This document shows, one piece after another, positions 12,965 to 47,800 of a DNA stretch of 64,000 nucleotides; within the stretch, counting starts at the first letter, position 1; each line of letters starts with the position of its first letter. This DNA comes from Phoronis australis (lineage: Eukaryota; Animalia; Phoronida). The DNA is taken from assembly GCA_002633005.1 (NCBI GenBank), contig NMRA01000716.1:120667-184666 (forward strand), given 5' to 3'. The position numbers and the translations under genes were made by a program. A model generated the notes under the pieces. The model was not told the origin of the DNA, did not search any database, and saw nothing but the letters and a program-made list of their open reading frames with translations.

Positions 12965-13974
12965 CAGTGGCGGATCTAGGATATCACAAGGGGGGGGCCA
13001 ACATTTTGTCCGGCTGGAAACATTTGCGCAAACTGAACCACGATTGTAGATGCGCATAGCACCGAATGGGGGCAAACCCCCCTCCCGCCCAGGAAATTTT
13101 TCTGTTTTTACCTCTAAAAATCAAGCATTTGCCTTGATTCCTGAAGTATTATCCAAGAAAAAAGGCGAAAAAAAAAACACGGAGAACGTGTCAAACAGGA
13201 ATAAAATGCAAGTGTCAAAGACTCGAACTCACGACCTAGAGGGTTGAGCGCGCGTACGTTACCACTACACCACCGCGATTTAACTACGACTCCTATACTA
13301 AAAGACTTACTTGTTTATGGGCCACAGCGTTTGCGCGCGTAACCTACTTCTTTTTGTAATGCTTATTATACGTTTTATATTTTGTGCCATCAATTCTTAA
13401 CAAATTTGTCGTATTTGAAATAGTCTTCAAATGCCCAAAAGACCAAATCCATTTTTGTGTTGGCAATAATGACGGGATTGCTTTGGAAATCGTCTTAAGT
13501 TGAGGTTTGACAGAGAGAGAATTAATGAGTTTCTGAATGATTCACTAAGGCTTCGATTAAAATTCACATCTTACCAACAGCTTCTGTTTTTTCATCGTCA
13601 CTCAGGTTCCATTTTCTTTAAAAATAAAGTAAATTTTCTCCATTGCACAGTGGAGCAGACGACGGCAACGGGGTCGTAGTGCGCAGCGCCACTGCCGGTC
13701 GCCTGGGATATCGCGGGAGAGCTTATACTTAGCCATAGTTCAGTTACGAATGCGCCGTGTTCCGAATTTGACACTTGAAATTGGATCTGAGCCCCCCCCC
13801 CCTCCCCAAACACTGAAACTGCGCACATTTAAATATTTTTTCATCCACATAATTTAATTACCGGGGCAAATTAATAAACTCAACGTTTCCCTACGCTCTT
13901 GCTGTTTTATTTTTTTTTGCGCCAGCCAAGAGAGCGGGGGGCGGGCGCTCTGCCCCCCCCTAAATCCGCCTATG
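12965..13974 (+). mobile_element. Non-autonomous DNA transposon, copy 1
   Basis: Ends CAGTGGCGGATCTAGG ... CCTAAATCCGCCTATG. Highly similar to 32943-33794 along most of its length. No TSD seen. Confidence 0.85.
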
Positions 13975-19852: not shown

Positions 19853-22800
19853 ATGAGTGATCCGACTAAAGAGGGTGCTGCTGAAGAATCATACCTACAA
19901 CGTCGAAGACGTATGGGCCCTGCAGCAAGCGAACAGGAACCTCTCTTGGTGGGTGAAACGTGTGTGGCATTTGTAATCGTTTGGGTGCTTTGCGCACGTG
20001 TGTGTGAGTTAATTCACATCCGCTGCACTGTGCAAGTGATAATAATGTATGTCTGATATTTTTACGATCGGGAATATCTTAGTGATCATTCTCGCAGAGG
20101 ATCTAGTTCTAAGAATTACTTGGGGAGGTATCCAGAAGCTTTATGTTGCATTTTTGTTAGCTTGTTCATTTGTTGTTTTTCTTGAATTTCAGTTGATGTC
20201 TAAGTCCACTATTACGTTACTCCTGTGATACATACAAATTGGACACAAATGATTGCGTGCAAATTGCGGTTTCTTTTTCATCAAGAATTCAGTTTAACGG
20301 TGTGATGTTTTGCACTGACCCTTTATGAAATGAAGTGTTATAATTATAAGAATGTACACTGTAGTTAGAGTATATATATGCATGTGTTACACAGTCTCCT
20401 TGAACACATTGCATTAGGCCTATAAGCAAACGATCCCACCCAATGTCAACCTGGCCTGGAACTGAAAATATCCTCTGGCACATTATATCACTTCTTAACC
20501 ATTAACTCACTCTTGCCAATGTCAACTTTGACCTATTGTCACCTTTGACCCATTATTTCTATGTATTTTGACCTATCATGTCACTTTGCTTCCTCTTCAC
20601 AGAATGACATGGTGAATACGTGGGTTCTTGGCCTATTATGTCACTTTTCACCCACTATGTTAATCCTGACCCATTGTGATACTACTTTGGACGTATTAGG
20701 ACAGCATCGACATCATGGGTCGGGGGTCTTGACCCATTGTGTCAGTTTCACCCATCATGTCACTTTTTATTCATTGATGCTTTGTAGACTCACTGTTGGT
20801 CAGTATTTTGCATAATATGTCGAAGGTTTCGAATCTGGATCTGAGTTATTATCTGTCTGTGACCATATTATGCCAATTTTGATCCATTAATTCACTTTTG
20901 TTCCATTATGCTAATATTGGAATAATGGATGGGGCTGATTGAATATAACTCTGTCCAGACCCACGGCTGACCAGATTTGGTATACTCGATGTCCTTCCTC
21001 GGGGCAGACGCATGGGAGTGGTTGTTCTCGGGTGCCCAGGTATTACGTTCGCCATTGCGAGCACCCGCAAGCAGACAATGTGAATTCGTAGCCTAATTCT
21101 AGATTACTCTGCAGGAAAAATAGAAATTAAACTCACCAACGTTTCGAAGATTATGCATGCTAAGTGTCGTGACATGTGAAAGCCCCGAAAACTTCTGCCG
21201 TTTTGTGCTAATGAATCAATAATGTTCTATTGAGTCAAAAGTCACAAAATGGGTCAAAGTTGATGTAAGAGGTCGAGGGTGCCGACCTGTTAGGTCAAAA
21301 TTGACGTCATGGCTCGAAATCGCCGTTACAGATAAAAAGTGACATCCACACTTCCGACCCGTGATCACGGATCACAAAATGTATTAATCCAATAGTGGAA
21401 TAAATGTGGAGAATTAGCCTAATAGGTCAATAGCCACGACCCATTACTTGAATTTTTACATGAGTTGTCAAAGATGTCATGATATGTCAAGAATTACCGA
21501 ACCATAATACCAGTTTGTCAAAATTGGACAAAAGTGACAACTTCCATTAAGCCTTTTTCAGAAAATTATGTCAATTTGTGAAGTGATTGCTTTTCTGTTA
21601 GCAGCTGTTTCATGGTAAATAACTTAAATATGATTCCTCGAAACTTTCTGCCAATGGCTATTGAGTGTTTGTAAATAACGAGTAATTTTATAAAGCTGCA
21701 TTTCTCACATCAACCCCGTGCTCAACTTGCGTTTCTAACTCAGTCAAGGGACGTGGTTGTCTATTTTAACCAGCATGTACAAGTACCAAATGCCGTTTCA
21801 GGGACATTGCAGCTAATTTTGGTAACATCAAAAATGACTGCTAATAACCATTAAGATGGCGATCTCCTCATTGCAAATTGCTTAGCCACTATACTAAATT
21901 TCTTGTTTATTCCCCTTCGTTCTCGGTCATGAGGGAGGACAACCCTAATGGTGAACTCAGCCTCCGCTCAGCCGTCATGAAAGGGAATCCCAGGTCATTT
22001 GTCCGAAAACATTTGACTTTTGCTCATGTATTCGTCTTATTTTCAGTTTCCTGGAATGTTTCGTGGGAGTGGAGCACGTAAAGCTATTGGCAATGACGTA
22101 TCAAGTAAGTAATTGAATGAAGTTATACAAAACGAAGTTCATAGGTTTCGACCAGTGGAAAGAGATCATGTCTCCGAATATCTCAAAACCACGCATAGTG
22201 CACGTGAATGAAAGTGGCACATACACAAAACACGTACAAGAAATAGAACACAAGCTTTGCTTTAGGGCTAGTAATCGGCAATCTCAAGACAGCATTCACA
22301 TAACTGAATAGATTGTAAATGTTTGATTTTTGTTACACTGTAGTCTCATAAAGAAATCTCTTTGTCCAAACTACGTACAAATTTGCAGTTATTCCATATG
22401 ACCTAATGGTTGAGAGGTGCTCTTTTGTTTGTCTTCTTACTTTGTTCGTTGCACTGCCGGATTAAGCAATTATGAGGCCTGTAATTAAGTCGCAGCGTAA
22501 GGCCCCCACCAGAAATATTTTTACAACAATTTTCTAATACCAAAAGCAAAATAGGTATAATTTTCACTTCTGAGAAGGAAAGCAATGGAGACGGCTTCTA
22601 CACGATGAGGCAGACAGTGTGTCCACTGGCCAACGCTAGCCGTTGCGATCGAATTGGACGATTTCAGGATAATTCACACCCCGATAATCAGAGGCTCCGG
22701 TGTGCAAGTTATGATATCAATAAATAAGTAGAGACTCCCTTTTCAAATGCATACATTTTAAGTTTTGCAAATTTTCCGCTCTGTATTTTAACAAAACCCA

Positions 22801-28800: not shown

Positions 28801-31800
28801 TAATGAAAACAAAAGGATTACTCATAAAAAGAGCAGCGTTTTTGAGATTTTCTCATGAACGTTTATGTCAAGCAAAATTTCGTAGTGTCATTTAGTATCC
28901 TGTTTGCTATGAGTGTACTTTGTAGGAAGACATGGTCACATGACTCAAATATTGCAGATTGGTAAAAAGTCTCAAATCAAAGCCTACAGGCCCTTTTACT
29001 TTGACTAACTGTGTATGCAGCCTTTTAAGCATGGCCCTGAATAACGTTTTAAACGCCGTAGCATCCCCTATTGGTCGTTTTAGTGTTAAACAAAATATCC
29101 CTTGTTCCTCGAATATTATCAAAACATTCATACATTCCGATTGATCGATATTAAGGAATCCAGAAGAGTGCTGCTCCAAATCCCTGTGTGGCTTGTGCGT
29201 CCATTAACTTTGTAAACCAAGGCTAGAGTGTATAGGTTCTTACTTTCATTTTGTCAGACTTAATGTGACCAAGAGCGGATATTCTTGGGCAAAGTGCACG
29301 GACATTTGTAATCGATCGGGCACCAAAGCAATGCCAAGTGGTCATTGATGTTTTTGATAACTGGACTTTATTTCTGTTGCTTACTTTACTCGTAAATTTA
29401 GCCAATAATGTCGATTTTCTAAAGGTTTTCCTAGGACGCGGTTTCCCAGACAACTGTTGCAGTGATTCGTCACTTGCCTCAGTCGCCTGTGGCAACCTGA
29501 TGCTTTTAGGAGAGCAAACCAATACAAAATACAAAATGTAGAATGACAATATAACCTTGAAAAGTTTATTTTATTAAGGGTACTGACACGCAATCACGAT
29601 TTGCGCAACCTGATGTAGTATTTACTTCCTAATTTGCCCAAATGCATTTTTGTTACAATTTTCAAACCAAATTCGCATTTAACTCCCCATAAGGGAACGT
29701 CCCTCTACTGTAGAATTTGTAAAGGTTTTCCATTGTGACATTTTCACAACACACATTCACTGATGACTTTCTACATAAAGTTTGTGAAATGCAAGACAAA
29801 AATTCGGCTTTTGGTTATTCGTAAGCATATTTAGACTTCTCACTTTTGGCTGAAGTCAAAAGACAAAAGTCAACAGTAAGTTTGAGAAACGGACACTGAT
29901 TGACAATGACATATTTTAGCCTGAATTTCTGGAATCTGGAGGTCTACCACATTTGGATTCTTGATTGCACTCTAAGGCCGGGACAGTTTTGAATTTGTGA
30001 TTTGGTGGAGATAAATGGAAAAATTTGTTTTAATTTTGACATATGGATTTTTTCTGGTGGACATACCAAGGTGAAAACTGAAATTTCAAAATCTGAACCT
30101 CACACCACGGCTTCAGGGAGCCATGCAGATCACCACTAAAACGAATAAATTGTCGATTATCCTGTTACAACGTCTGACCCAAAGTAATTTCCCATGTAGA
30201 AATGTTCCGAGTTAGAACTAAGATGGCGCACTCTACTGGACTACTGCAGTACGGTGATGTCACACTTTCTGTCCCTAATGGGCTATTTGTCTTTTTGAGA
30301 AACCTAAAACCTTGTGTTGATTAGTCAAAGATTGGCACGTATTCACCAAAACGATTCTTGCGTGGTCTTGTCTTCAGCTTAGTCTGTTTGATGTCAGAAA
30401 CTTTTCCGATATTAGTGCACGGAAACGACTGTAAGAGAGGGGAGTTGTTGGTATAAAATTTGATTTCATTACGAGTTGTATGAACATAAACGTATGTAAA
30501 GTTCGGAAAAGTCCGTGTCAGCCTGTGTATACCTTTAAATCAATTAGTTAGTCACAAATTAAACCCAGTATTGTAATGCGGTGTCTGCTTTGCTTTCAGC
30601 CCTTTACGTGGAAAGGGGAAATTATGAGGAATGCATCAGGACTTGTGAGAAGGCTCTTAGATTGGGCAGTGACAACAAAGACGATTACAAAGCAATAGCC
30701 AAGTACGTACTGAGGTTTTGTGTTGTCACATATAGTATCAAAGCTGTTATCACGTTTTTTTTTTAATTTTGACAAAGCACAAAACCTATATTTCGGTAGC
30801 GGAGGTGATTCTGCATTTCATGTGGAAGGATTCGTTCAGTGTCCAGTAGTGTTGTTATCAGCAGAGGTACAGTTGGGATTGGCCTACACGCGGGATTGCC
30901 GCTGATGATCATTACGGCTTGCCCACTTCTGTTGGTTCACAGTTAAGAGGCCTGACGCCACTGTTGAGGCTGCAGATGCAGTGTTTTGACATGTGTGATA
31001 TATGATTCCACCTATACAAAGCACTTGAGCATTGCATGATTTACGAACTTAGGCACGAAATAATTTTCAGGATTTAGCAGTAACTAGAGGACTTATGGAA
31101 TCATTACAGAATCATTGGTCTAACTTAATGGCTTTGCAATATTTCCAGACTCCATAGGCACATGGCAGATGCGTACGAAAGACAAGGTGATCTCGACAGT
31201 GCGTTGTTAAGTATGAAGAAGTCGTTAACAATACGCATGACTCCGTATGCTGTCTATCAGGTGCTGGAGGTAAAGTCTTAGCATAATAAACTTAAGTTAA
31301 TAAACTGATGATTTATCCAGGTCCATGCATATAGTCAAATTGTAAGTAGGTCAACTAGAGGTACCTTAATAAAACGTAACTGGAGCTTTAACGCTGGGTC
31401 ATGAAGTGCAAAATATGATTACAGAGTCAATGTAAACCATAATATTCTTGACCACAGAAGAATGGACATTTATCTTGAATTCATACCAAAGTAGAACGGA
31501 AAATGCTAAAAATTATTTCGAATTCGATTAGATCCTGACCAATGAACTTAGACATTCGTGCTAAGTTAACATTACAGGTATTTGCTCAAATGGGAATAAT
31601 TACTTTCAATCATTTTGGTAAATTTTACTGACTTTGAAATTACTTTTGAACCTGTAGTTCTTCAGACCGGAAGAGTGGCCCTCTGAGCATTGTTGTGACT
31701 GTTCCTGGCCTTGTGCGCCTCGATAACAGCGGTCAGGTGCCAATGCAATCTTGTATTTAATAAAATGACAATGTGCAATGCAGTCACAGGTGTTTGGAGT

Positions 31801-34800
31801 AAAAAGTGTACGGCGAGTCTATAAATTGCAATTTTTGAAATCTCACTTATCCATAATCAATCAATAACGGATACGATCTTTACTTAATCAGTATTTTTAG
31901 ACAATATGAAAAAAATGCAGAAAGAAGTTATCCAACAACGAATGTCATATCATTTTTAACGAACTCTGCACCAGAGAAACGCTAATGCCGAGTTATATTG
32001 AATGAAACAACATCCATTTAAAGAAATGGATAAGCTTTAGAATACAACCACTGTATATCTCCTCAAGCTCAATAAAAGAGAGACTTAGTGGCAAACAATA
32101 AACTTCCGCGACTATGTTTACGCTATAGATTGAAAAGATGAAGAAGGAAAAGGAACGACCAGCTCACGTTAAGCAAGAATCACCACTTGAAGAGAAATGC
32201 AAGGAAGAGGAACGTCTCACAAATGGTAATGTGATCTTGGAACGCTAAAGGAGAATGACTCTTGGTCATTTACTTTGGTCATAAGTTATTGGAATGTCCA
32301 CTTTGAAAAATTAAGAACTTTCATCAACTTCCTACCTCGTTTCGTTCATTTTCACGAACGTACAAAACACTATCGGACAGGCTTAGCCTAACATTCAGAA
32401 CCACAGTGCAAACTCAGTAATTTATTGATATGATCTTGTTACCGTCTCTGAACTGTGACAGTCGGAGTCACCACGAAAATGTGAATGTTGGAGGGCTTAC
32501 ATGTAGCTCAATCCAAGAATTTGTCAATTTACATGGAGAAGATTGGTGTCTGGCATGTGCAGTTGGATCTCCTCAATCCCTTGAAGGAACTTGATGACAT
32601 TTGGCATAAGTTTTTTTATGGATCTGGCATAGTGATGTTGCTTATTTTCCCCTCCGCTACGCCCGCCTTCTCATAGTATGGAAGTTCATGGAAATGAGCA
32701 GAAGTGTTCCTATTTTGGATATCGAATCGAATCTACCACTGATGAGCGCTCTGGTGACATATTTAGGTTTTCCCATTTCGCCGAATGTTTTGCCGTCCCT
32801 AACTTCTGTCGCGCCCTAATCCGCATGACAGCGTTCTGTCGTTCAGCAAATTTTCCAGACGTGAGAGGTTAGGAACGAGCGATAACATCTGGCTCCTTTG
32901 TTAACTGCCCCGGACAGTCTACATGTATTGTCCCGTATGACACAGTGGCAGATCTAGGATATCATAAGGGGGGGGGCCCCAACATTTTGTCAGGCGGTAA
33001 GCATTTGCGCAAACCACGATTGTAGATGCGCATAGCAGCGAATGGGGGGAGGTCTGGAGGGGGGATCTCCTCCCGCCCAGGAAATTTTTCTGTTTTTTTC
33101 TCCAAAACTCAAGCATTTTCCTTGGTTCCTGAGGTATTATCCGAGAAAAGCAGGCAAAAAAAAAGAGGGAGAAGGAATCATACAGGAAGACCTGCAAGTA
33201 CCAGAGACTCGAACTCACGACCTGACGGATAGAGCGTGCGTGCTTTACCACTACACCACCACGACTTAGCTAATAACTCTTTAACAAGAGACCTACTTGT
33301 TTATGGTCCACAGCGTTTGCGCGCGAAACCTACTTCTTTTTGTAATGCTTATTACACGTTTTATATTTTGTGCAATCGGTTCTTAACAAATTTGATGTAT
33401 TTAAAATAGTCTTGAAATGCCCAAAAGACCAAATCCGTTTTTCGTGTTGGCAATTATGACGGGATTGCTTTGGAAATCGTCTTAAGTTAAGGTTTGAGAA
33501 AGAGAGAATTATGAGTTTCTGAGTGATTCACTGAGGCTTCGATTAAAATTCACATCTTACCAGCAGCTTCTGTTTTTTCATCGTCACTCAGGTTCCATTT
33601 TCTTTAAAAAATGAAGTAAATTTTCTTCATTGCACAGTGAAGCAGACGACGGAAACAGAGTCGTAGTGCGCAGCGCCACTGCCGGTCGCCTGGGATATCG
33701 CGGGAGAGCCTATACTTAGCCATAGCTCCGTTACGAATGCGCCGTGTTCCGAATTTNGGCAGCCAAGGCCCCCCCCCCCCTAAATCCGCCTATGTGACAA
33801 CAAGCAGGCCAATTATCTACCCGGCTTCACTGGGGTTACTGAAACCTGGCAGTAGTAGAGCGATTTTAGTGATTCAAAAACTAAACATGATCAGCATTTG
33901 ACAAGGAATTCACAAATGCTATTGGTTTATGCTCAAATATGTTATAAATTAACTTTCATTTTTATCAGCCCAGCCCAGTCCGGGCTAGATAGGTCTACGA
34001 TCTGATAGGAGATTAGAGCAATTATCGAATAACAGAGAGCGGGAACTTCCAACCATAAATGCTAGAGTGGAGTTAATCAGTCGTGTAAGATATTGGCTAC
34101 AGGGGTAAACTTCCCAACTTGTTGGGAGCAACAGGAAAACGCCATAATTGAACTTCTGTGGCGCCATCTTCAGGAATGCTAATACAGTGGTGATGCTTTA
34201 TAACCTCAAAGCCTCTCTAAGAATTCCAAATTGAAAACTAAACAGGGTGAAACGCAGATTTAAGACAAGGTAGCCTCGAAGGTATGGTAGTACTCAAAAA
34301 ATCAATTCAAAAACACAAGGTTGTCAATCACTTGAATTGTTTATGCTTTCATGACATTCATTATAGTTCGGTAGCAGCCCTTCGTTAACACAGGCTTTGT
34401 GGAAAACACGACTAAACTTTTTGTTTGAAAGCTTGATACTGAGTCGCTCGTAATGTCGAAACATTCTCCTTTCCTCGGGTGTGCAACTATGAAGTTGACC
34501 TAAAACACCAAGAGACATAACAAACAAACAAATTAAAACACAAGCTATATTTCGAGACAGCATGTCTCGTCATCAAGCAATAAGTACATGAAATGAATGT
34601 TGGATTCAAGCAAGGTCTGAAGGGACAACAGTTCACCATGCACAATTTACAAGTTAAGATATCATCGACATAGCGGACATAGATAGGAATTTTGGCAATT
34701 TGGCAATATGCTGAGCGACCCGTTTTTCAACTTCTGACGTGTAAAATTCTGACAACGTTGGGCCTAAGAGGGAACCCATATTGACGCCGTCTTTTGTAAA

Positions 34801-37800
34801 AACAACTTGCTATTAAAATGCCGATAGGGGACTTGAGGTGTACAGATAGTGAATAAAATGCGCGTAACCTAGGTTGTGAGATACAGTGTATCAGTTGGTT
34901 TTAACAAGAGCAACGCAGAGCGTTGAAATGCGCCCACAATTGCACCGTATATGGTATCCTTCTGGGTTTGTTTATTGGTACCATAAAGTGGCCAGTAGAG
35001 GGCATATATGTAGTATGTTGTACTTTGCAAAATGGAAAGGCATGGTCATTGTCTCCTCAATAGGCTAGGTTTCAAAATGTGAGTGATCTTCATAATACAA
35101 GTGCATCCTATGCATCAGTTGCTTAAAGCACACAGAAACATAGAATTAAAAACAAATTTACCAACATACGAGATTAGCACAGCATTAAAATGCCAGAAAC
35201 AAATTTCTACTTGGAAATTTTCCTTCATAGTCACGAAGTAACACAAAGTATACACCTGAAGACCTATGAAAATACAGAGGTCAATGTGAAATATTTAAAT
35301 TGCCACTAGAGGCATACCGGTAGTCAGAATCATCCTAAAGTCGTCATCGTCCGTTGTCNNNNNNNNNNNNNNNNNNNNNNNNNNNNNNNNNNNNNNNNNN
35401 NNNNNNNNNNNNNNNNNNNNNNNNNNNNNNNNNNNNNNNNNNNNNNNNNNNNNNNNNNNNNNNNNNNNNNNNNNNNNNNNNNNNNNNNNNNNNNNNNNNN
35501 NNNNNNNNNNNNNNNNNNNNNNNNNNNNNNNNNNNNNNNNNNNNNNNNNNNNNNNNNNNNNNNNNNNNNNNNNNNNNNNNNNNNNNNNNNNNNNNNNNNN
35601 NNNNNNNNNNNNNNNNNNNNNNNNNNNNNNNNNNNNNNNNNNNNNNNNNNNNNNNNNNNNNNNNNNNNNNNNNNNNNNNNNNNNNNNNNNNNNNNNNNNN
35701 NNNNNNNNNNNNNNNNNNNNNNNNNNNNNNNNNNNNNNNNNNNNNNNNNNNNNNNNNNNNNNNNNNNNNNNNNNNNNNNNNNNNNNNNNNNNNNNNNNNN
35801 NNNNNNNNNNNNNNNNNNNNNNNNNNNNNNNNNNNNNNGTGGCGCAAACTATGTCGAATCCATCTGAAAACGGGAGGATAGCGTCATCTCACTAATAAGT
35901 GCCTACATACCAAATTTCATGAAAATCCGTTCAGGACTTTTGAAGATACAAAGGTAAGCGTAAAAAACTAAAATTGCCACTAGGGGGCACACCGGTAGTC
36001 GGATCAGTCCGAAAGTTCGCACATGCCGCCCCATTCATGAATGGAACATATGTGCCAAATTTCATGAACATACGTGAAAGGGTTTTGGAGATAGAGCAGC
36101 GGACGCCAGATGCCGGACGGACGCCGCCCGTACGGACGGACGGACGGAGATGACGGCATAATGCGTCCACATATAAATATGTGGGCGCATAAAAATGAGT
36201 GCGTATACATTCATTCTACTTATTGCCTGATGATGAGACCTGTAGTCACGAAATATAGCTAGTGTTTCAATTTGTTTGTTTGTTTGTTTGTTTGTTTGTT
36301 ATGTCTTCCGTTGTGTTACTACATAGTTGCACACCCGAAGAAAGGTGATTGATTCGACATTACAAGCGGCTCATTATCAAGTTTTCAAACAAACAGTTTA
36401 GTTGTGTTTTCAACGAAGTTTCATGATATTTATACACAGATGGCGTTGCCAATGCGGCCAGCCTGGGAAAAGATGACGAGCATCCGCGAACACCACATTA
36501 CTCTCAGTTTAAGTGTCGACTTGACAGTTTCAAGAAGTGGCCCTTGTCAAAGTATCAAAGCGACTTCAATTTGGCAAAAGCAGGCTTCTATTTCATTGGT
36601 GAGCTGAGACTATCCCTGTGTTTGCTTTAAATGTTGTGTGAAAACTAAATCCTATGAATATCTTTATCAGACCTGTTACTTCTGAAGTGTTCTACGTTTC
36701 GTTATCAACACTGCATGGTAGAAGGTAGACTTTGGGAGACATGATGTTAGTCTTGTTTTCATGATGCACCATTCGCAGTTGGCAGGTGGGCAACTCTAGA
36801 CAGTCAGAAAACCTTAATTCTTTCTGCTCGATTACTCTTGATTGTACTTTAAATCGACAGCGTTAAGATAATCAGTAGCCTGAACATTTAAGACATTTGA
36901 TTTCATTTTTCGCCCTTTTGTGAACGGAAATGGTACCAGTGCTAACAGTGTGTCCTGTATACTCCCTGAAGCCCCCAAGTTCGATTCACAATCATAATAG
37001 CGTTATGAGACCGATTATGTGACGGAAAATTGTCTTAATCAAGGGCTGCCTTCATGGACAGAACGCAGGTTTATAGGCACTTGAAATATGTCTTTCACTC
37101 TCCCTGTAGGTAAAGCTGACCTCGTCAAATGTTTCTTCTGCGATGGCTGCCTCTCAAACTGGGAGCCAAAGGATGACCCAATCATAGAGCACGCTCGCTG
37201 GTTCCCACAATGCGGCTACGTCCGCCAGAGGATGGGCAACGATTTCATACTTGTTGTCACAGAGTATTTTGCACAGCTTAATTTGGTAAGTTCAGAAAGC
37301 ATGAAGTTGTATCTGATTTTAAGTTGGTAACATTGATTTGCCTGGCAGAAGGTACAAGAAACAGCTTGGAAACCGAAAGAGCACATATCATTGTACCAGA
37401 ATGTGTTTGCTGTGTTGTTTCTTCCCATATTCGAAGGTGGTTGCTGATTTACAAAACCGTCTCACTGCAATTGTTTTGTCTTGCTTATCTGCAGTTCCCA
37501 TTCGGAAATAATGTAGCAAGCAGCGTCTATCTAACATAATTTGAACTTTGTCTTTTAAATTCAAAGCTGGATGTTTATTATTATTCAGCGTGCCCGAAAT
37601 GTTCTCCGAGGGCGACCTTTTCGCCCACTTCGTCAAATGAAGGGTTTGTTCAAGCCCTCCGACTACCCTCCCCCCCTTCTGAGTGCGCGCATGTATGCGG
37701 CCCAGGAGCAGAGTCTGAATTTCAAGTCCAGGGCCCCGTTCCAAGAAAAATGACTTAGCTAAGACAGATCTTAACTTTCAGTTAATTTTAAAAGAAGACT

Positions 37801-40800
37801 TATATTTGTCTCAAGATCATTTCAAAAAGAGATCTCTTAAAAGTTGGACTTAAATTTTGACTATCTTAGCAGATGTAGAAGTTTCAAAGTTCGGAATTTG
37901 AGACAAATCTTAGATTTAAGTAAAAATGAACTTAAGTCAGTTTTTTGTTAGGGGCCCTTGGCTTGTACTGACATGTCAGTACATTTGTGGACACGCTGTG
38001 TTTTATTCGAGCAGGAAAGTGCATCGGTTGTTTGTCAAGACAATTGTGCCAATCCAACCAGTGATCATCATGCAGAAAGCTACCAGAATAGTGAAGCTAC
38101 AGACAAAACCATTATCGTTGACAAGTGCGACTCTACCGAACTGACAGCCGGTGGTTTGAAGTTGGTGACAGATGCAGCAGATAAAGGTGTTCACAGGGAT
38201 ACTATTAAAGGTGAACGTTATTTTTATAGACATTCAAAAAGTTCGACTTTTGCGTAATTTTCTAATTATCATTGCCTTCAGTGGGTCATTGTTTGCAAGT
38301 TTTGCGAAATTTAAATCTTCTAAAAAAATTTCGCAGTCCATTGTTAATAAAAACAACAATTTATTTAAATCGACTTGACATGTTTCGGCGTTTACTAACA
38401 CACCATCTTCAGAAGTAAAAACAATGGCCACTATGCGGACCCAACAACAAGTAATGGTACACAGACACAGTCAGTTACAGGGTAGCAGACGGAAACAGAC
38501 TAGACCAATGAGCAATTTTAATTAGATCATTGACTAGACTAACGATGACAACCTGTGGTGTGCCAGTAGCCTATTGAGAGTGTGCTTGTACCAATTGATG
38601 TGTAGAACCTCACGAATTTTAAGCTCCTTTGTTGTTTCTGCTTGGTCTGTGATAGCAGATTAGTCATTGAAAGAGCATTGCTCATTGCAAAGATTGGCGC
38701 TCTGCAGACGAGTTTTAATATGTGAACTTCTGTCAGAATTTAGATGTTCCCTGGTCCAGGTTTTCAAGTGGCGAGCAATTTCGCCTATATAACTGGAGCC
38801 ACACCCAGCACAGATAAATTTGTACATTACGCAATCCCTATAGCAGGAACAACCTTTGACCAGTTTACTCATTGTGTCTGCCTGGTTCTTACTGCATCGA
38901 TGTCTAGTGATCTATATTTTAATGAGCTCAAAGAGAAAGACATGCCCAAAGACCTTTATAGTCGCACAATTCGTTGAGGGAGTCGCAATTGTCCCTTCTA
39001 CAGAAGATAGTCGACTGCCAGTCTAAGGTTTTCCCGCCTTTCCTGAGACCGCTAGAATTGGAGAGATGTGATCCCCACAACATAAAGCTTTAACTAGGAA
39101 TGTCCGACTGAAATGTTCATAATTAGTGATATACGTGTACCTGGGCATGGACTTATACATAATCGTCATCAGTTAGTATATTTTTAAAATGTGCCCAAAA
39201 GACAGTAGTTAAAAACAGACTAAATAAAGTATAGTTTTTCTAGTAAAAGGTGTTAAGAGCATTTGTCATTGAATAAAACCTGTTTATATTTTGTTTCGAA
39301 AGGATATTTAATGGTAATGTAACTAAGACTGGATAATTATAAATGTACAAGGCACAAGTTTCTTTATTCAACATTAGCACTAAATCGCGAGTATAAATAA
39401 TACCTCCAAGGTTCATTGCTTATGCCGACATAATTTATAAAACTAACGTTTATATGTCTGAAATTCATTTTACAGTACAAAGGTTAAAATAAATTAGTGG
39501 TTAGGCGCAATAACGTCACGTTCAACTCTTGCTAAATTTCCACAAAACGCTCATTGCTATAAAAGTTCGACTAATCTGCCAAATATTTCTGGCAACAAGT
39601 GTGCCATAGTTTGGTGGAGTCTAACAGAATCGTGTCAAAATATGAACTGATAATTTGAACACCACTGTATCTGTGGAACGTAGCTTGGCAAATGAATAAC
39701 CCTTTCAGTAAAGCAGCGCTCAACAGGTATTATCTTGCCTCAAGTTAATCGCACACTACAGTTAAACCAACAATGGTGGAATGTTGCAGTAGCGCCATGC
39801 AGTACCTTTCACTACAACCTTTACCAAGTAATTGACAACAGAGAATCTATGAGTACTTTATATCTCTTCCCACTTCACGAAGAGCTAACAATGCAGGTGC
39901 TACATTGTAGATGGAATGGTTACGTTGGAAAAGGCCAGACTGCAAAACTTGGACTCTTCCTCCGCTGATTTGATGGCTGGTGAGTTCGAATCATCAATGG
40001 AATACCAAATTGAAGCTAAAGCTGTTGATGAACATGTTAACCAACGCACTGAACAAGGTAAACATAACTTTCAATCAGTTCACTGTTCCTTTAAATCCAA
40101 CCGTCGTATTTTGAAATGCTAGAGTGCCTTGAAAAGAGCAGTGTATATCCGTGCATATGTGTTTGGGTGTGAGCGTCTGTGTGCATGGGCTTGTATAACT
40201 TTCTCAAACGTGTCCAAAATCATTTCAGATAAAAACTCGGAACAGCTGGATGAGGAGGAGGAGAGACTGGCAAAGGAACTGCAGCAACTCATTGAAAGAG
40301 AAGGCGGATCAAAGTCTGGAGGGTCCCTTCTTAAAAAAATGGGTGACGTTTACAAGATGCGGGGTTCATTAACAGAATGTGTACAGCATTTTGTTATTGC
40401 ATCGTCATTATACAATGCGGCACTAATGAGATGCGATAACCCAGAAATGATTGCAAGACTTGAAACATCGCTGAGAGAAAATGAAATAGCCTTCTTTGAC
40501 ATGCTATCAGTTCCGATCAGCAAAATACCAATGAACTTCAAACTTGAAATGAAACAGAAATTGCAAACCATCAGACAATATGTTTCTTTGAAGACGGGGG
40601 AAACGTTGAGAAAGTTTACGCAAGAGTTTAGTTTAGAAGATCAAGAAAATGAGAGAACAGAATTAGAAATGATTTTTGTTCAGGAAACCAGAGGTATTTT
40701 TATGGATTTGCAAGCCAAAATGAAATCCTTCCATAAGGAACTCCTTTCAAAGTGTAAGGAGATTTTAGGACCACCACCCCAGGAATACACTGCAATAGCC

Positions 40801-43590
40801 ATGGGATCTTTAGCAAGGGGCGATACAACGCCATATTCAGACTTAGAATGGGCGATTTTGGTGCAAGATGACTGCAGAGATGTCGAATACTTCAGAAACA
40901 TGGTTCGGTTGATGCACTTATTCATTTTAAATGTCGGAGAAACATACCTTAGGACAATGAGCATCAAGTCGCTTAACAACTTGGATAAACCTGGCGGAAA
41001 TTGGTTTGTTGATGACGTGGTAGCTCGCGGGATTGAATTTGATAGTGCTCTTCCTTTTGCTTGCAAAACGCCACTCGGTCGACCTGACAGACCCGGAAAA
41101 CCAGGTTTAGAATTAATCAAGACCCCAGCAAACATGGCTAAATTATGCGAAGTTAACATGGCTGTAAAAGAGGGTTACATCATCGATCGGGTGTTGACGA
41201 TTGTGACGAAACTTGATGGAAGTGATTCGCTTTTTGACAAGTTCAGATCACTGAAAGCACAGTACCAAGATGAAGAAGCTGCACGCAAGAAATATGCTCA
41301 AGACATGCGCAGTCTAGCGAAAGAGTTCTTCCCGGAACTTAGTTTTCATAGCGGGAAGAGAACTCGACATGACATAAAAAGAGAGATGTTCAGGTTGCCG
41401 TCTCTGTTCGTCACTCTATTTAAACCATTATTTGGTCTATATAGTGACAACACCTGGAATATCATATGTGAGATGAGTTCCAAAGACATTCTGACAACAG
41501 AGGGCGGGCACAATTTACTTGTACTCATTTCCATAACAGCACTTTTAAGGCTGATGATGTATTCCACTAAATCAAGCCAAAATGAACAGTTTGTTTTGTT
41601 ACAAACGCCAGTGCAAATGCGCCAGTCAGCAGAGGTTTTATTTGGATACAGTGGACTTCACAAATTAGTAATAAGATATTATTACTCACTACTGCCGTTA
41701 GTTGAGTATGTGAATGACACTCCACTATCAGCCATGCTTAATCGAAGGAAACTAGAACTCACATTTTTTGAAAAAAATTATCTATGTGCGGGTCTCATAC
41801 AGTTCTACTGCCTTTGTTACGAAAGTGCCCGGGACAATTTTTTTGCTCAGATTGAATTGGTTTCCACAGAGAAGTCGCTTCCAAACCAGCATCACCCAGA
41901 AGACATAGTTGTTCAATACAAGGGCAGGGACATTTTCTGTGACCACACAGAAAAGAAAGTATTAAGTTGCCTCTTAATGATTGGCAATACATACAAGGAA
42001 GAAGGACAGGCAAAAGACGCGTTAGAATACTATTCGAAAGTACTACCTATCATGCGGAAGAACGAAAACGAGGCCTACAACATATTATCACATAAACCAA
42101 ATTACTTTGAAAACCTTTCTTTCGTGTTACAGGTAATTGGGGGACTACACTCTGAGTTGAACCAGCATGAGTTAGCCTTAAAATACCACCAAGAGTCTCT
42201 GCGTATGCACAAGAAGATATATGGCAAACATTCAGACCATGTGTGCATTGCGTCTAGTTTGTACCAAATTGGGACAGACCATAGTAAAATGAATCAGCAT
42301 GAGTTAGCCCTCCAACATTTTGAAGAGTCGCTGAATATGAAGAAGAGAATTTATGATAAAGTTGACCATCCAGAGATAGCGGGAACACTGAATAACATAG
42401 GATGGCAGCACAGTGCTTTGGGCCAGCACCAGACAGCTTTAGAATTTCACCAAGACGCCCTGAATATGTTCAAGAGGATCTATGGTAAAGTTGATCATCC
42501 AGTTATTACAACTTGTTTGAATAACATTGGGTTGGAACATGGGTATTTGAAGGAGCATACGTTAGCGTTACAGTATCTCCAAGACTCACTAAGTATGAAG
42601 AAGAGGATGTATGGTGAAGATGATGGCCCAGACATAGCAACGAGTTTGCATCGGATCGCAATGGAGCATTATGAGATTGGCCAGCACGAGTTAGCTTTAC
42701 AATATCAACAAGACTCACTGAGTATGTGGAAGAGAGTTAGAGGCGATGTTGACCATCCACACATTGCAGGGGCTTTAAATGCGATTGCAAAGGTGCATAG
42801 TGCTCTTGGCCATCACGAGACAGCCTTACAATGTTACAAGGACTCAGTAAGTATGAGTAAGAGGATTGATGGGGATGTGGACAGTATAACAATTGCAAGA
42901 ATGTTGAAAGGCATTGCGATGGACCACTGTAAGCTGAGACAGAACCAGTTAGCTTTGATATATCTCTTAGACTCACTGGATATGATGAAGAGAATTTATG
43001 GTGAAATAGACCACCCTGACATTGGAATTGTCTTGAATCACATTGCGACCAATTATAGACTTTTGGGTGAGCTCAAATTTGCCTTGCGTTATTTTCAAGA
43101 CTCAATGACTATGAATATGAGGATTTATGGTGAGGTCGACCATCCAACCACTGCAAGTGAGTTGAATAACATTGGGTTGCAATATTCTGAAATGGGCAAT
43201 CATGAAATGGCTGTAAAATATTTGAATGGGGCACTGAACATGCGCAAGAGGATGCATGGTGACCAGAAAACTATTGATATTGCACTGGTCTTTAATAACT
43301 TAGGGTTTTCATACAACGCGTTGGGCCAGCATAAACTAGCCTTAGAAAACCACCAGGAGGCACTGGGAATGTTCAGGAGAGTTTATGGTGACGTTGATCA
43401 CCCATGCATCACTCTTAGCTTGAATTGTATTGGTAGAGAATATGCTATGATGGGCAAGCATGAGATAGCCTCCCGGTACTTCCAAGAAGCAATGGATATG
43501 TACAAAAGGGTTTATGGTGAGCATGCTGATCAATTTGATGTAGGACATCTTTTGCTTATGAAGTTGCAACCACTCAGTGAAATGCCATGA
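19853..43590 (+). CDS. Multi-exon chimeric protein (~1692 aa): Hop/STIP1-like TPR module + BIR domain + GlnD/DUF294-like nucleotidyltransferase + C-terminal TPR array
   Basis: Hand-built GT-AG model: 19853-19948, 22047-22104, 23914-24147, 26243-26351, 26723-26816, 27845-27971, 30600-30702, 31149-31269, 32129-32225, 36440-36598, 37110-37285, 38015-38210, 39911-40057, 40229-43590. Total 5079 nt, with no internal stops seen. Junction phases 0,1,1,2,0,1,2,0,1,1,0,1,1 all match. The first five exons and the two linker exons (38015-38210, 39911-40057) rest only on splice and phase logic; the others also have domain homology. Confidence 0.7.
20440..21545. repeat. Degenerate foldback element built from ~18-bp units
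   Basis: The left arm repeats TTTGACCCATTATGTCACT-like units (20490-20900); the right arm repeats the complement, AAAGTGACA..ATGGGTCAAA (21230-21545). Confidence 0.55.
24640..25700 (+). mobile_element. Degenerate Gypsy LTR-retrotransposon gag (SCAN-like capsid, Gmr1-type) remnant, intronic
   Basis: [37 protein letters not shown] (24960-25070), with a frameshifted DTDSFLA(R)FEK upstream and a possible protease RDxGC relic near 25610. Boundaries are approximate. Confidence 0.7.
27845..32225 (+). CDS. Four exons encoding a STIP1/Hop TPR2A-derived module
   Basis: Spliced translation [42 protein letters not shown]|[35 protein letters not shown]|[40 protein letters not shown]|[32 protein letters not shown]. 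By eye this is collinear with Hop TPR2A and the start of TPR2B (ALKEKELGN...[20 protein letters not shown]...KSLAEHRTP...[28 protein letters not shown]). Confidence 0.85.
32943..33794 (+). mobile_element. Non-autonomous DNA transposon, copy 2 (intronic)
   Basis: Same ends as 12965-13974, with a 5-bp direct repeat TGACA on both sides. Shorter at an nn gap (33757-33758). Confidence 0.85.
34365..34590 (-). mobile_element. Probable Penelope-like 5'/pLTR fragment; an inverted second copy lies at 36212-36418
   Basis: The two segments are visibly homologous in opposite orientation. They contain (C/T)TGATGA-N-GAGAC..GTC(T/A)C-GAAA and an ORF start ending [15 protein letters not shown], which resembles PLE N-termini. 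Confidence 0.55.
35295..36195 (+). mobile_element. HINE/pearl-type (Helentron-associated) element spanning the N gap
   Basis: The core repeat AATTGCCACTAG..ACCGGTAGTC occurs on both sides of the gap. It is followed by (GGAC)n at ~36115-36148, a terminal hairpin ATGCGTCCACATAT/ATATGTGGGCGCAT at 36161-36190, and an A-run. Confidence 0.6.
35359..35838. other. Assembly gap (480 N)
   Basis: Run of n in the sequence. Smaller gaps at 15661-15682, 33757-33758 and 43836. Confidence 0.99.
36440..37285 (+). CDS. Two exons encoding a BIR (baculovirus IAP repeat) domain
   Basis: Exon 36440-36598 gives [21 protein letters not shown]...LAKAGFYFI and exon 37110-37285 gives [38 protein letters not shown]. 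The zinc ligands show exact C-x2-C-x16-H-x6-C spacing. Confidence 0.93.
37731..37957. mobile_element. Palindromic MITE
   Basis: Ends GGGCCCC..AAAAATGACTTA / TAAGTCAGTTTTTT..GGGGCCC, with an internal inverted pair ATTTGTCTCAA / TTGAGACAAAT. Confidence 0.65.
38365..38845 (-). mobile_element. Penelope-like retroelement 3' remnant (GIY-YIG endonuclease)
   Basis: Translates as [37 protein letters not shown], then after a stop [29 protein letters not shown]. This fits the PLE GIY-YIG domain with its CCHH motif. A hammerhead motif follows downstream. Confidence 0.85.
38373..38416 (-). ncRNA. Minimal type I hammerhead ribozyme
   Basis: Minus strand reads ACUU-CUGAAGA-U-GGUGU-GUUAGUAA-ACGCC-GAAA-CAUG-UC-AAGU: full catalytic core, stem I ACUU/AAGU, stem II GGUGU/ACGCC, palindromic stem III ACAUGU and GUC cleavage triplet. 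Confidence 0.8.
40229..43590 (+). CDS. Terminal 3.36-kb exon: helical N-region, nucleotidyltransferase-like domain, 12 TPR repeats
   Basis: Lies within the 1153-aa ORF of the track, with acceptor catttcag|AT at 40228/40229. Motifs: [22 protein letters not shown] (hGS-x10-DxE, 40798-40863), [28 protein letters not shown]. These are followed by repeats with consensus DHPxIAxxLNNIGxxHxxLGQHxLALxYxQDSLxMxKRIYGxV. Confidence 0.93.
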
Positions 43591-43836
43591 AACGTCTTTC
43601 CTGAAAACATATTGCCCTCGATTACGTGAACGTCGGCACTGCAAACCCGGTATCCCCTAGTGCAACGGCCTCAGATCTCTGTTGTTTATGATGTTTATTA
43701 GTGATATCAGGAAGAGATAACCAGCTGGTTATTGATATTGACAAAGACAACTCACCTGATACCAGGCGTTGGCTTTTAGCACACGACAAACTTATTTACC
43801 GTAAGATACTAGCCACACACTGCAACGTGAAATGAN

Positions 43837-44831
43837 GACTCAGTAAGTATGAGTAAGAGGATTGATGGGGATGTGGACAGTATAACAATTGCAAGAATGT
43901 TGAAAGGCATTGCGATGGAACACTGTAAGCTGAAACAGAACCAGTTAGCTTTGATATATCTCTTAGACTCACTGGATATGATGAAGAGAATTTATGGTGA
44001 AATAGACCACCCTGACATCGGAATTGTCTTGAATCACATTGCGACCAATTATAGACTTTTGGGTGAGCACAAATTTGCCTTACGCTATTTTCAAGACTCA
44101 ATGACTATGAATGTGAGGATTTATGGTGAGGTCGACCATCCAACCACTGCAAGTGAGTTGAATAACATTGGGTTGCAATATTCTGAAATGGGCAATCATG
44201 AAATGGCTGTAAAATATTTGAATGGGGCACTGAACATGCGCAAGAGGATGCATGGTGACCAGAAAACTATTGATATTGCACTGGTCTTTAATAACTTAGG
44301 GTTTTCATACAACGCGTTGGGCCAGCATAAACTAGCCTTAGAAAACCACCAGGAGGCACTGGGAATGTTCAGGAGAGTTTATGGTGACGTTGATCACCCA
44401 TGCATCACTCTTAGCTTGAATTGTATTGGTAGAGAATATGCTATGATGGGCAAGCATGAGATAGCCTCCCGGTACTTCCAAGAAGCAATGGATATGTACA
44501 AAAGGGTTTATGGTGAGCATGCTGATCAATTTGATGTAGGACATCTTTTGCTTATGAAGTTGCAACCACTCAGTGAAATGCCATGAAACGTCTTTCCTGA
44601 AAACATATTGCCCTCGATTACGTGAACGTCGGCACTGCAAACCCGGTATCCCCTAGTGCAACGGCCTCAGATCTCTGTTGTTTATGATGTTTATTAGTGA
44701 TATCAGGAAGAGATAACCAGCTGGTTATTGATATTGACAAAGACAACTCACCTGATACCAGGCGTTGGCTTTTAGCACACGACAAACTTATTTACCGTAA
44801 GATACTAGCCACACACTGCAACGTGAAATGA
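43837..44831 (+). repeat. Near-identical tandem copy of 42841-43835 (3' end of the TPR gene), probably an unmerged haplotype
   Basis: Offset of 996 bp. The junction is exactly one n at 43836, the copy starts mid-ORF with no splice acceptor, and it differs by at least 7 substitutions. Confidence 0.9.
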
Positions 44832-47800
44832 ACGCTCTCGATCATCAATTGTGCCAGTAGATGGAAGGTGTTGCTTAATGCACCGAAGTTCTAGTCTCTA
44901 TAATTCTGAAACGCAACTTCTACCAGCATGCATTTTCAATTCAAAGAACCTCTTTCACGACAATAGGGTATTGGTGCCAAAACGTCACACTCGCAATGTA
45001 ACATTTGATGTAAAAAACTGTGGTCGCTTTAAAGGATGCGAAACCCTGTTTTGGTAATTTAATCAATCCTCGTTCTGTCATCTGCTAATGCATCATTGGC
45101 GTCCCAATTGTATGACAAAAGCATGAGTCAACTAAAAACTCATACTCTCTGTTACAGATTAAAAATTCTGGTTCTTGGTTGGTGGTCTTTCCCTACAGTT
45201 ATGTAACTCGCCCAACGCATAGGTTACGTTTGCCCGTTTTCAAATTTTGTTCCAAATTTTGGGGATTGTCGAGGATTACAGAACAGTGTTTTGTTTCAGA
45301 TAACTGGATGTGAAAGTTGTTTTTATTATCTGTCAATAGACCAAATCAGGACTTTGGTATCCTTTTAAGCTTGAGCATAAAGTTGGTGCCAATTATACAA
45401 CGAAAAAATCGCCGAGCGTTTGCTGCACGGTTCGGGGGACGAAAGTTTTCTGATGAACTACCCTTCGCACTAAGGGAAATTCTGACCATAAGGCTTTCGG
45501 AAAAAGGTCCCTCCCTTGCCAACCATGCAATAACGCAACATTGTAGTAAACCAGTGGACGCCTCCTTTCGTTACCTTTTGAATACACGAGCGTGAATTGT
45601 GCACTCTTCGTTGAGATTGTGAAACACGGGATTCGGGAAGTTCCTGAATGTGTGTTTTTTTTAAATTTTTGATGTTTTGAATACACGATGACAAGCCTTT
45701 GGTCTGCAGCATTATTTCGCCGGTGATAGATTTAGCCGTGAATTGTCGATTACATTTGCAATTTTCAGTAACTTAGATTATTGATTGTCTGGCGAGCATG
45801 TAAAATTTCACTCTTAACGACTGAAATGCATGCAAAAGACAATTTGTAATTAAAACCGTGATTGTCTGTGCATGATTATCATCTACTTCCGCATTCATAA
45901 GTGTATTGTTCCAGGGACCAGTGCATAAGCCACGCGTGTACTAGATTATTAATGCATGTGTACCCAGAACCGATACAACCCCAGTTACACTGTTGTGCTA
46001 CACGTATTTTGTGAATTTGATTTTGGAATTATCTTGAAAGAACTGTCGTGATAACCCATCGAAAGTTAAATAGGGTTTGTTTTTTCAAATGTATATTCAA
46101 TTCAGTTAAACAATGCACATCGCTTTTTGTTATAGGCATCACAAGAACCACTTGCTTGTTTCAGTAGTTTAGATCCATAATATTTTTATTTTGTAGTATT
46201 TGCATTTGTGTAATTTTCAACAGCCATTTGAATGTCTTTGCATGTACATTGCAAGTTAATTTTCCCAAACAATGTATATTACTTCTTGTGTTTCCTGCTT
46301 GCTTAATTCCTAATCGTTATCACTGCATGATGATAAACGCGTTATTCTGTGATTATGAAGGTGAGAGTTTGCAGTGTAGTTTATACTCCACTCCTTGCAT
46401 CTGACGTGAGCTATTATTGTTCGAAAGTCTGGAATTCTAATATAGGCTTTTTATGCACCCACTTGTGTCTATGTAGGTGCATCATGTTTCGAAATATTGT
46501 GTGTCTTTCCATCGTGTCTTTTGGTCACTTACTGTAGCATTGTTCTGTTGAATGTGGAACATTGCTCCCAGGGTATGAACGAAACGGAATAAAGATAGTC
46601 AACAACGACAAGTGCCGTGTTATATTTTTGTGTATATTTTTGGACTTCATTTATATTTGTACGTACATTAATGACATACCTGTATGTTCTATTGGTGAAT
46701 TGCAGAGAATACTAGACATGGTTATTTTTCTTCATTGAGCTTATTGAGCTTATTGATTAATGTATTTCTACTACAAATATGTAAATTGACATTTGGCCTG
46801 ATGACAGTAAACCGTTTTAAGACTGCGCACGGGTTTAAGCAAGTGAGCCACTAGGTCACGCCGACCGACATCCCAATTCACACTGGTAATGTTTTTACCC
46901 GGTAATGTGGAGATGAGTTTCAGACTCGGAACTTTTTACCTTAAAGATGAGTCAGATGCAAAGTAAGGTTAGACAATTATCAACGTAAGCCTTTGTGTAC
47001 ACAGTACTCGAGCTTAGAATACAATTGTAATGGACATTCATACTGACTTCGCACAAAGTAGAACAGAAAATGCCAAAAATAATTTCAAGTTCAATCTCGA
47101 GCAAAAAGGTTAAACTCCTGGTCCAGAAGTATAAAATGGTATTTTTAATATGGCAAGTAAGGCGTTTTCAAGTTTACATTTTATAGACTATGTGGATAAG
47201 AATGAAGTATTTTAAAAACGTATTTGCAACTGTTTAAAACACACCCATGATTCGTTCACGTGTCAATGGAGAACTGGACATGAAGTCATTCATTTTTTTC
47301 TTAAAAAGGTAACACAATTTATGCATGTGTTAAAATGATAAATTCTCGTCGTTAGTCAACTGGTATCAGTTACTGTCGAATTTCTAAGAAAATTATGAAG
47401 CTCCAAATTAAACCAGTACCTTTCTGCGCGTAAAAGGATATTATTCGCACGCGCACTGAGAATGGACTATTCTACGTGTATAATGGCAACTTTAGACAGA
47501 ATGCTATACATGTCAACAACATTGCTCTAACCACGGCAATTTTTGTACAAAAAACCAAAAAATTGCACTGATGAAAACGAGTTAAAATGCTGACTGTTCA
47601 AATGACAAATGCCCATTGCAATCTTGTAAATCTCTCAGACTGTGTGTGCCGGTGAGGGACGAATGGCGAAGGAAATTTTCAGCTAATTGACGGAAATCTG
47701 AGACTATTTTGAGAAAACAGATTCCCGGCCAGTAGAAGTCAAAACAAAGGTTTCGAAATTCACTTTCGACTTTGGCAAAAAAGCGTAACAAGTACATGAA

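Follow-up and report, generated by a model that had tools for sequence, protein, structure and literature searches.

The window analysed here, a 64,000-nucleotide stretch of contig NMRA01000716.1 of Phoronis australis, contains a plus-strand gene in which a nucleotidyltransferase (NTase) module is joined to tetratricopeptide repeats (TPRs) and a BIR domain. A preliminary description of the window had pointed to an intact GlnD/DUF294-like NTase domain in an animal protein; the open reading frame (ORF) that holds it, 1155 uninterrupted codons at 40123-43590, proves to be, from 40229 on, the terminal exon of a 13-exon gene which that description had missed. As spliced, from 22047 to 43590 with 12 introns, the gene reads in a single frame from the ATG at 22056 and encodes a protein of 1657 residues, in which Hop TPR2A-like repeats, a BIR, a linker, the NTase module and a TPR array follow one another (Table 1). 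This arrangement would bring chemistry of the DrrA/GlnE type, in itself a known kind of enzyme, into an animal protein, joined there to BIR and Hop-like TPR exons.

RNA data show the gene to be transcribed and spliced. Its upstream exons were not found by tblastn with homologues and were recovered instead from these data. Each of the 12 introns is crossed by junction reads in both of two stranded RNA runs of one study (X6 and X7; 3 to 26 reads each), among them the intron between the linker exon and the NTase exon (40055->40227, cut +2, GT..AG; 11 and 21 reads). The joints after exons 3, 5 and 8 fell a few bases off GT-AG and were placed on the nearest GT-AG pair, and with these three adjusted all 12 introns are GT-AG; a 936-nt contig from a second study joins exons 6-12. 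In X6 and X7 RNA covers the ORF at a depth of about 17-36 as far as 42815; the first mates map to the minus strand, a pattern that most libraries produce from plus-strand RNA. In a third run, X8, depth on the ORF is 0.4-2, about tenfold or more under X6 and X7 over 40146-43349, which suggests tissue- or condition-specific expression.

Table 1. Exons of the NTase-TPR gene and features of its product, in window coordinates.
Feature	Position	Strand	Remarks
Exon 1 as detected, first ATG 22056	22047..22104	+	Joint 22104->23914, 17 and 12 reads; true 5' end may be further upstream
Exons 2-4	23914-24147, 26243-26351, 26723-26816	+	Junction reads; N-terminal region, Pfam blank or E 0.16
Exons 5-8	27845-27971, 30600-30702, 31149-31269, 32129-32225	+	Three Hop/STIP1 TPR2A-like TPRs, then a charged helix
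Exons 9-10	36440-36598, 37110-37285	+	One BIR; joint 36597->37109
Exons 11-12	38015-38210, 39911-40057	+	Acidic linker; junction reads; no Pfam match
Terminal exon, coding part	40229..43590	+	TPR-like helix pair, NTase module, TPR array, stop
NTase module, DrrA/GlnE type	40531..41733	+	Helical N-part, pol-beta core, HEPN-like helical C-lobe
G-S-x10-D-L-E motif	40804..40848	+	G730, S731, D742 and E744 of the spliced protein
Likely third catalytic acid	41041..41043	+	D809 of the spliced protein (D307 of the ORF)
C-lobe K (41377), R (41392) and R (41548)	41371..41550	+	Aligned to K/R of the DrrA C-part
C-terminal TPR array	41968..43524	+	Pfam TPR_12/TPR_10 type, repeats of about 42-43 residues
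Second copy of the gene end, 995 bp	43837..44831	+	Likely assembly artefact (allelic duplicate)

The NTase module carries an apparently complete catalytic motif. The residues on which the preliminary description relied lie where it had placed them: G-S at 40804-40809, the aspartate at 40840 and the glutamate at 40846 (spacing G-x11-D-x-E), GIEFD at 41029-41043 with its aspartate at 41041, DIKRE at 41371 and the LR arginine at 41548. The superfamily signature hG[GS]-x9-13-D-h-[DE] falls on a strand-helix-strand in the query, and 67 of 20000 shuffled versions of the ORF protein contained h-G-S-x10-D-h-[DE] (0.3%). Conservation was counted over 241 aligned domains, the query included, from 224 homologues and the query; a row had to span the GS..DxE stretch to be included, so that counts in this stretch are inflated. 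G, S and the three acids are intact together in 239/241 domains, so the motif is kept among homologues as the description expected; by column the figures are G 241/241, S 239/241, D 239/241, E 240/241 and D307 240/241. In the C-lobe, K419 is kept in 229/231 rows, R424 in 217/233 and R476 in 226/233, and the query lacks the HEPN RNase motif R-x4-6-H after R476, a motif that 27/233 rows have. Altogether the query retains 38 of the 42 columns conserved at 90% or more.

By conservation and register, D809 is likely the third catalytic acid. In the model the 41041 aspartate adjoins a beta-bridge residue, and the GIEFD stretch falls near the third-acid strand of GlnE in a weak hhalign alignment (probability 11%). 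PMC7815794 gives the triads as D110, D112 and D150 for DrrA and D701, D703 and D753 for GlnE; it should be noted that residue 753 of the K-12 GlnE sequence is an alanine, with an aspartate at 752 by our own count.

Both structure and sequence profile place the NTase domain nearer to DrrA than to GlnD. The module (40531-41760, residues ~639-1048 of the spliced protein) was folded from a 95-sequence alignment to a model with pLDDT 88 and pTM 0.90, whereas a single-sequence fold of the whole terminal exon reached a mean pLDDT of 42 and was not used. Foldseek returned just four matches at E<=0.001, all of them DrrA (6yx5, 1.1e-8) or GlnE chains (1v4a, 3k7d). VIA-align, which rescored 826 Foldseek chains and is not independent of that search, likewise put DrrA/SidM first (6yx5_B; Z 24.6, root-mean-square deviation 4.0, 302 residues), then the adenylylation domain (Z 22.9) and the N-domain (Z 22.6) of GlnE, with aligned spans of 301-321 residues, DrrA included; DrrA fragments followed at Z 10.8 and 10.7, and then entries at 8.2 and lower (HEPN, AadA, KNT, HalB), 8.2 being the best score of an unrelated entry. 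The helical C-lobe, also anticipated in the preliminary description, superposes on the HEPN-like bundle of DrrA and GlnE. A family profile built from 41 sequences, mostly without TPRs, matched DrrA in the PDB over both lobes at E 1.3e-6; no other NTase fell below E 1, and GlnE and GlnD were not in the list of matches (a profile that contained the TPRs was swamped by TPR matches). The C-lobe stretch of the DrrA match is weak alone (i-E 1.2), and there the K, the R and the later R of the family align with DrrA residues.

The Pfam results are in keeping with this placement. DUF294 (PF03445) matches at E 2.6e-6 and 27.8 bits against a cut-off of 21, over model positions 30-95 of 138 only, with weaker NTP_transf_2 and Polbeta matches over the same stretch. 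SidM_N stays below its cut-off of 27 (E 0.011, 15.5 bits), and the GlnD models reach E 0.016-0.077 and 11-13 bits against cut-offs of 519-799. The earlier assignment thus stands as to the pol-beta fold of the GlnE/GlnD/DrrA branch, which the fold searches it proposed recover with DrrA and GlnE on top, and is amended as to the closest solved relative, which is DrrA/SidM and not GlnD. Pfam also bears out the TPR array behind the NTase.

Upstream of the linker, exons 5-10 encode recognisable host domains. Exons 9-10 match the Pfam BIR model at positions 1-30 (E 3.7e-4) and 34-69 (E 2.1e-13), the zinc ligands C-x2-C-x16-H-x6-C are intact, and the top PDB matches are the BIRs of NAIP and the IAPs. 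A regular expression of the BIR consensus of PMC13159474 did not match; by eye there is a one-residue spacing shift before the conserved Asp, and the ligand spacing fits. Exons 5 and 6 align to residues 228-266 and 268-300 of STIP1, which are consecutive parts of TPR2A, and exon 7 has generic TPR matches with no STIP1 row; the Pfam TPR matches in exons 5-8 lie under the cut-off for each exon. Judged by eye, the IBM-binding groove of the BIR is presumably type II-like, and the carboxylate clamp by which TPR2A binds Hsp90/Hsp70 tails is presumably lost in part.

Relatives of the module are numerous. A search of representative sequences gave 1580 proteins at E<=0.001, of which 150 were listed, and word searches gave 78 and 55; at least three TPR matches are present in 165 of the 224 homologues. 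Thirty proteins were looked up by identifier and 17 carried a name. Among the carriers named are Branchiostoma, Owenia, Saccoglossus, the soft coral Dendronephthya and Hydra, and among bacteria Chlamydiae (Protochlamydia, Parachlamydia), Megaira and Holosporaceae. Amphioxus makes up a clade of 106 domain rows, 49 of them labelled, and amphioxus members bear the automatic UniRef label 'Protein-PII uridylyltransferase N-terminal domain'; the Atlas neighbours are DUF294 clusters. Three proteins of that clade (P0081, P0082, P0083) show three tandem NTase modules and may be merged gene models. A 0.8-Mb Bacteroidota genome (G001) holds three long ORFs of the NTase family (L004-L006; 1162-2232 residues), with no match in the 150 other genomes of its class (1/151 in all, the starting genome itself). 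A scan of genome contigs with a single bacterial query, of low sensitivity, gave one locus, and of 13 pattern matches in viral contigs none was confirmed by tblastn.

A tree of 32 labelled domains, from which unnamed rows were left out, pairs the query with two proteins from Owenia on long branches (94/87). The Chlamydiae fall into a separate clade, and the free tree nests the Megaira, Holosporaceae and Bacteroidota copies among animals on weak branches. The Hydra kinase fusion P0052 groups with the Megaira and Bacteroidota copies (100/100), a placement that suggests, as far as the tree goes, a separate and more recent exchange. Since the NTase-TPR core is common to intracellular bacteria, it has likely moved between animals and endosymbionts.

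We also asked which domains accompany the module elsewhere, in two overlapping hand-picked sets of homologues with long unexplained segments (32, with the five best families shown, and 14). Fusions were seen to CARD (P0036), IRF (P0107), Roc-COR-Death (P0104), GT4-conflict (P0095), OTU (P0109), kinase (P0052, Hydra vulgaris), PARP (P0061) and RickCE (P0049), and many of these homologues have TPRs alone. P0109, from Owenia fusiformis, combines OTU with two NTase domains and TPRs. The fusion of a BIR to the NTase-TPR core appears to be new.

Several known systems offer points of comparison. The module shares with the Legionella AMPylase DrrA/SidM (6yx5, 3nku; SidM_N) the two-lobe fold, the G-S-L-x-D-x-acid motif and the C-lobe K/R, but at 14% identity, with Glu as second acid, a longer insert ahead of the third acid and a SidM_N score below cut-off; it lacks the GEF and PI4P domains, is followed by TPRs instead, and is host-encoded and spliced, with TPR and BIR flanks. 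It resembles GlnE/GS-ATase (3k7d, 1v4a) in fold, with motif and third-acid strand in rough register, and differs in its single NTase module in 1657 residues (GlnE has two), in G-S where GlnE has G-K, in the lack of a PII-regulated linker and in an identity of 11-13%. Likeness to GlnD, DUF294 and DUF294_C extends to the DUF294 match above cut-off, whereas full-length models score far under their cut-offs and Pfam finds no HD or ACT domain. The NTase-TPR core recalls NEX2 of Neochlamydia, a 50-member F-box-(OTU)-DUF294-TPR family for which the passages of PMC4209131 that describe it give no function. The Owenia protein P0109 echoes the OTU-DUF294-TPR layout of NEX2 and its kin, and unlike these uncharacterised bacterial proteins the query has an N-terminus of host exons (Hop-like TPR, BIR). 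With IAP/BIR proteins it shares one BIR with intact zinc ligands, and BIR-Mab-21, listed for Anneissia japonica in a survey of 2843 IAPs (PMC13159474), also joins a BIR to an NTase fold; in the query no RING, UBA or NACHT is seen, and the NTase is of the DrrA/GlnE and not the Mab-21 type, with no Pfam match to Mab-21 in the terminal-exon protein. The passages and searchable supplement of that survey have no entry for DUF294 or uridylyltransferase.

The literature we found treats this enzyme branch as bacterial. The relevant part of PMC3710099 lists the GlnD/GlnE/DUF294_C/DrrA group as bacterial; in passages of PMC8097203 and PMC12409994 the eukaryotic AMPylases named are FICD and SelO, with the NTase-fold AMPylases GlnE and DrrA treated as bacterial. 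Passages of PMC8195603, PMC3482391 and PMC2794190 contain nothing on the animal family, and in a search that left most subscription journals outside we found no paper describing an animal NTase-TPR family or AMPylation by its fold in animals. The family is already annotated automatically in databases.

Within the window, the end of the gene is present twice. The segments 42841-43835 and 43837-44831, each of 995 bp and 99.3% identical, are separated by a single N at 43836 and differ at seven positions, all coding, four of which change an amino acid. We rejected an ORF at 43831-44586 as a paralogue, since it is a near-identical copy beside a single N and a contig of X5 skips it; read depth drops over both copies, and the duplicate is likely two alleles assembled in tandem. 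Farther on, at 44586-46000, contig record 3 of X5 and read depth indicate that the transcript seems to run past 46000 as a long 3' untranslated region. Near the other end, plus-strand RNA extends beyond the mapped exons at 23736-27737 (depth up to 8-14 at 27071-27737), to be read as intron retention or as use of an alternative first exon. In intron 8 (32670-36400) there are repeats to which RNA reads map very deeply, fitting in part and often antisense, along with a 480-base run of N (35359-35838) and a segment (32943-33756) with an 87% copy at 12965-13769. On the minus strand, 54346-57712 carries a CBP80/NCBP1-like gene whose exons match MIF4G_like and MIF4G_like_2. Rfam gave no match, and PADLOC short motif-level matches only. 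The introns, the BIR and the CBP80-like neighbour mark the host as eukaryotic, and the relatives of the protein mark it as an invertebrate animal, in agreement with the description's animal protein.

Taken together, these observations make it very probable that the module is an active enzyme of the DrrA/GlnE type of some kind, and somewhat favour the view that the 1657-residue protein is a protein AMPylase under regulation, with a role in innate immunity or in the control of cell death. Protein AMPylation is taken as the most likely activity because the closest enzymes of known function attach AMP to protein tyrosines or take it off (PMC8097203, PMC12409994 and PMC12663964); AMPylation of protein tyrosines is documented for DrrA as well as GlnE, and for DrrA allosteric activation too (PMC8097203, PMC12409994 and PMC7815794). 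By analogy with these two enzymes, D742, E744 and D809 would hold Mg2+, and AMP from ATP would pass, with the help of the C-lobe K/R, to a hydroxyl side chain of a protein target. More tentatively, the TPR array might pick the target, or might keep the enzyme inactive as long as no ligand is bound, in line with the dependence of DrrA on allosteric activation; the BIR might serve to bring in caspases or IAP antagonists, and chaperones might be engaged by the Hop-like TPRs. The NTase-TPR core would have moved between animals and endosymbionts and then acquired host exons. We infer the immune role from architecture, expansion and partner domains; the partner domains and the amphioxus expansion fit what is expected of conflict genes.

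Several points weigh against this view. The resemblance to DrrA and GlnE amounts to only 11-14% identity, and AMPylation is a prediction from that likeness. A fold held in common does not reveal a substrate: the AMP-removing N-domain of GlnE reaches as high a score as its AMP-adding domain. The query sits on a long branch (1.4) and deviates at 4 of the 42 conserved columns, with P277R and G308S near the third acid or its approach. The RNA evidence consists of short reads, none of which covers the whole transcript, and such reads do not by themselves place all exons on one molecule. The partner set was hand-picked from predicted gene models, and P0196 and P0185 look like merged neighbours. Because no BIR occurs in the 224 homologues (nor was one seen in the domain lists of the word searches), its fusion here may be a recent lineage-specific accident. 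Finally, animal monophyly (18 rows, Hydra left out) is neither found nor rejected (p-AU 0.29), and the tree leaves the direction of transfer unfixed.

Among other explanations, the one that survives best, though we consider it unlikely, is a sensor-enzyme of the DrrA/GlnE branch whose product would be a free oligonucleotide messenger, cyclic or linear, in the manner of cGAS/cGLR or OAS. The superfamily motif is common to both, family expansion and the joining of TPRs and death-fold domains are reminiscent of cGLR families, the supplement of PMC13159474 lists a BIR-Mab-21 fusion for a crinoid, and HalB (Z 6.1) and CdnE (Foldseek E 0.9) turn up with weak scores. However, protein-modifying enzymes score Z 22-25, whereas no cGAS or OAS appears in 50 VIA-align rows down to Z 4.9 (an absence of limited weight, since this list re-scores the Foldseek matches), nor in the Foldseek matches themselves, and the C-lobe fits the HEPN-like bundle of DrrA/GlnE; the oligonucleotide synthase which the preliminary description had offered as an alternative has gained no structural support. 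De-AMPylation, in which the module would act like the N-terminal domain of GlnE and undo bacterial effector modifications, is improbable. It draws on 1v4a, second by Foldseek (E 7.2e-8) with the highest TM (0.57) and aligned at Z 22.6 over the most residues (321), but DrrA is best by sequence profile, C-lobe K/R included, and the nearest bacterial relatives resemble secreted effectors.

Equally improbable, in our estimate, is a module with little catalysis that serves as a nucleotide-binding scaffold or decoy while the BIR and TPR surfaces do the work. The long branch, the four substitutions and the predicted nature of the activity would allow it, against which stand the three acids, GS and C-lobe K/R kept in the query and in nearly all relatives. 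Transfer of another nucleotide to protein (UMP, as by GlnD), or of a nucleoside monophosphate to a small molecule as by aminoglycoside nucleotidyltransferases, we regard as more doubtful still; the weak GlnD matches (E 0.016-0.077) and the KNT and AadA rows (Z about 7) hint at it, but they score far under DrrA/GlnE and below curated cut-offs, and a protein is the substrate to be expected from the TPR and BIR partners. That the ORF comes from a contaminating bacterium or endosymbiont or is a silent insertion, which an intronless 3.36-kb coding exon with bacterial relatives might bring to mind, has a negligible probability, as the exon has stranded RNA depth in two runs, is spliced to the BIR/TPR exons through GT-AG introns with junction reads that already contradict the idea, and shares its window with the CBP80-like gene.

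If the preferred reading as a protein AMPylase is correct, a large and catalytically intact animal family of the DrrA/GlnE fold would constitute a third class of AMPylation writers and suggest an exchange of effector chemistry between endosymbionts and their hosts. The BIR provides a testable handle on the substrate, pointing at the caspase/IAP network. One may speculate further, at low confidence, that marine invertebrates possess in this family a third endogenous class of AMPylases, domesticated kin of DrrA-like endosymbiont effectors that act as immune sensor-enzymes, and that in the present protein the BIR captures caspases or IAP antagonists so that the enzyme AMPylates them or an associated GTPase as a cell-death switch. 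Were that so, AMPylation would be a switch in animal cell-death control.
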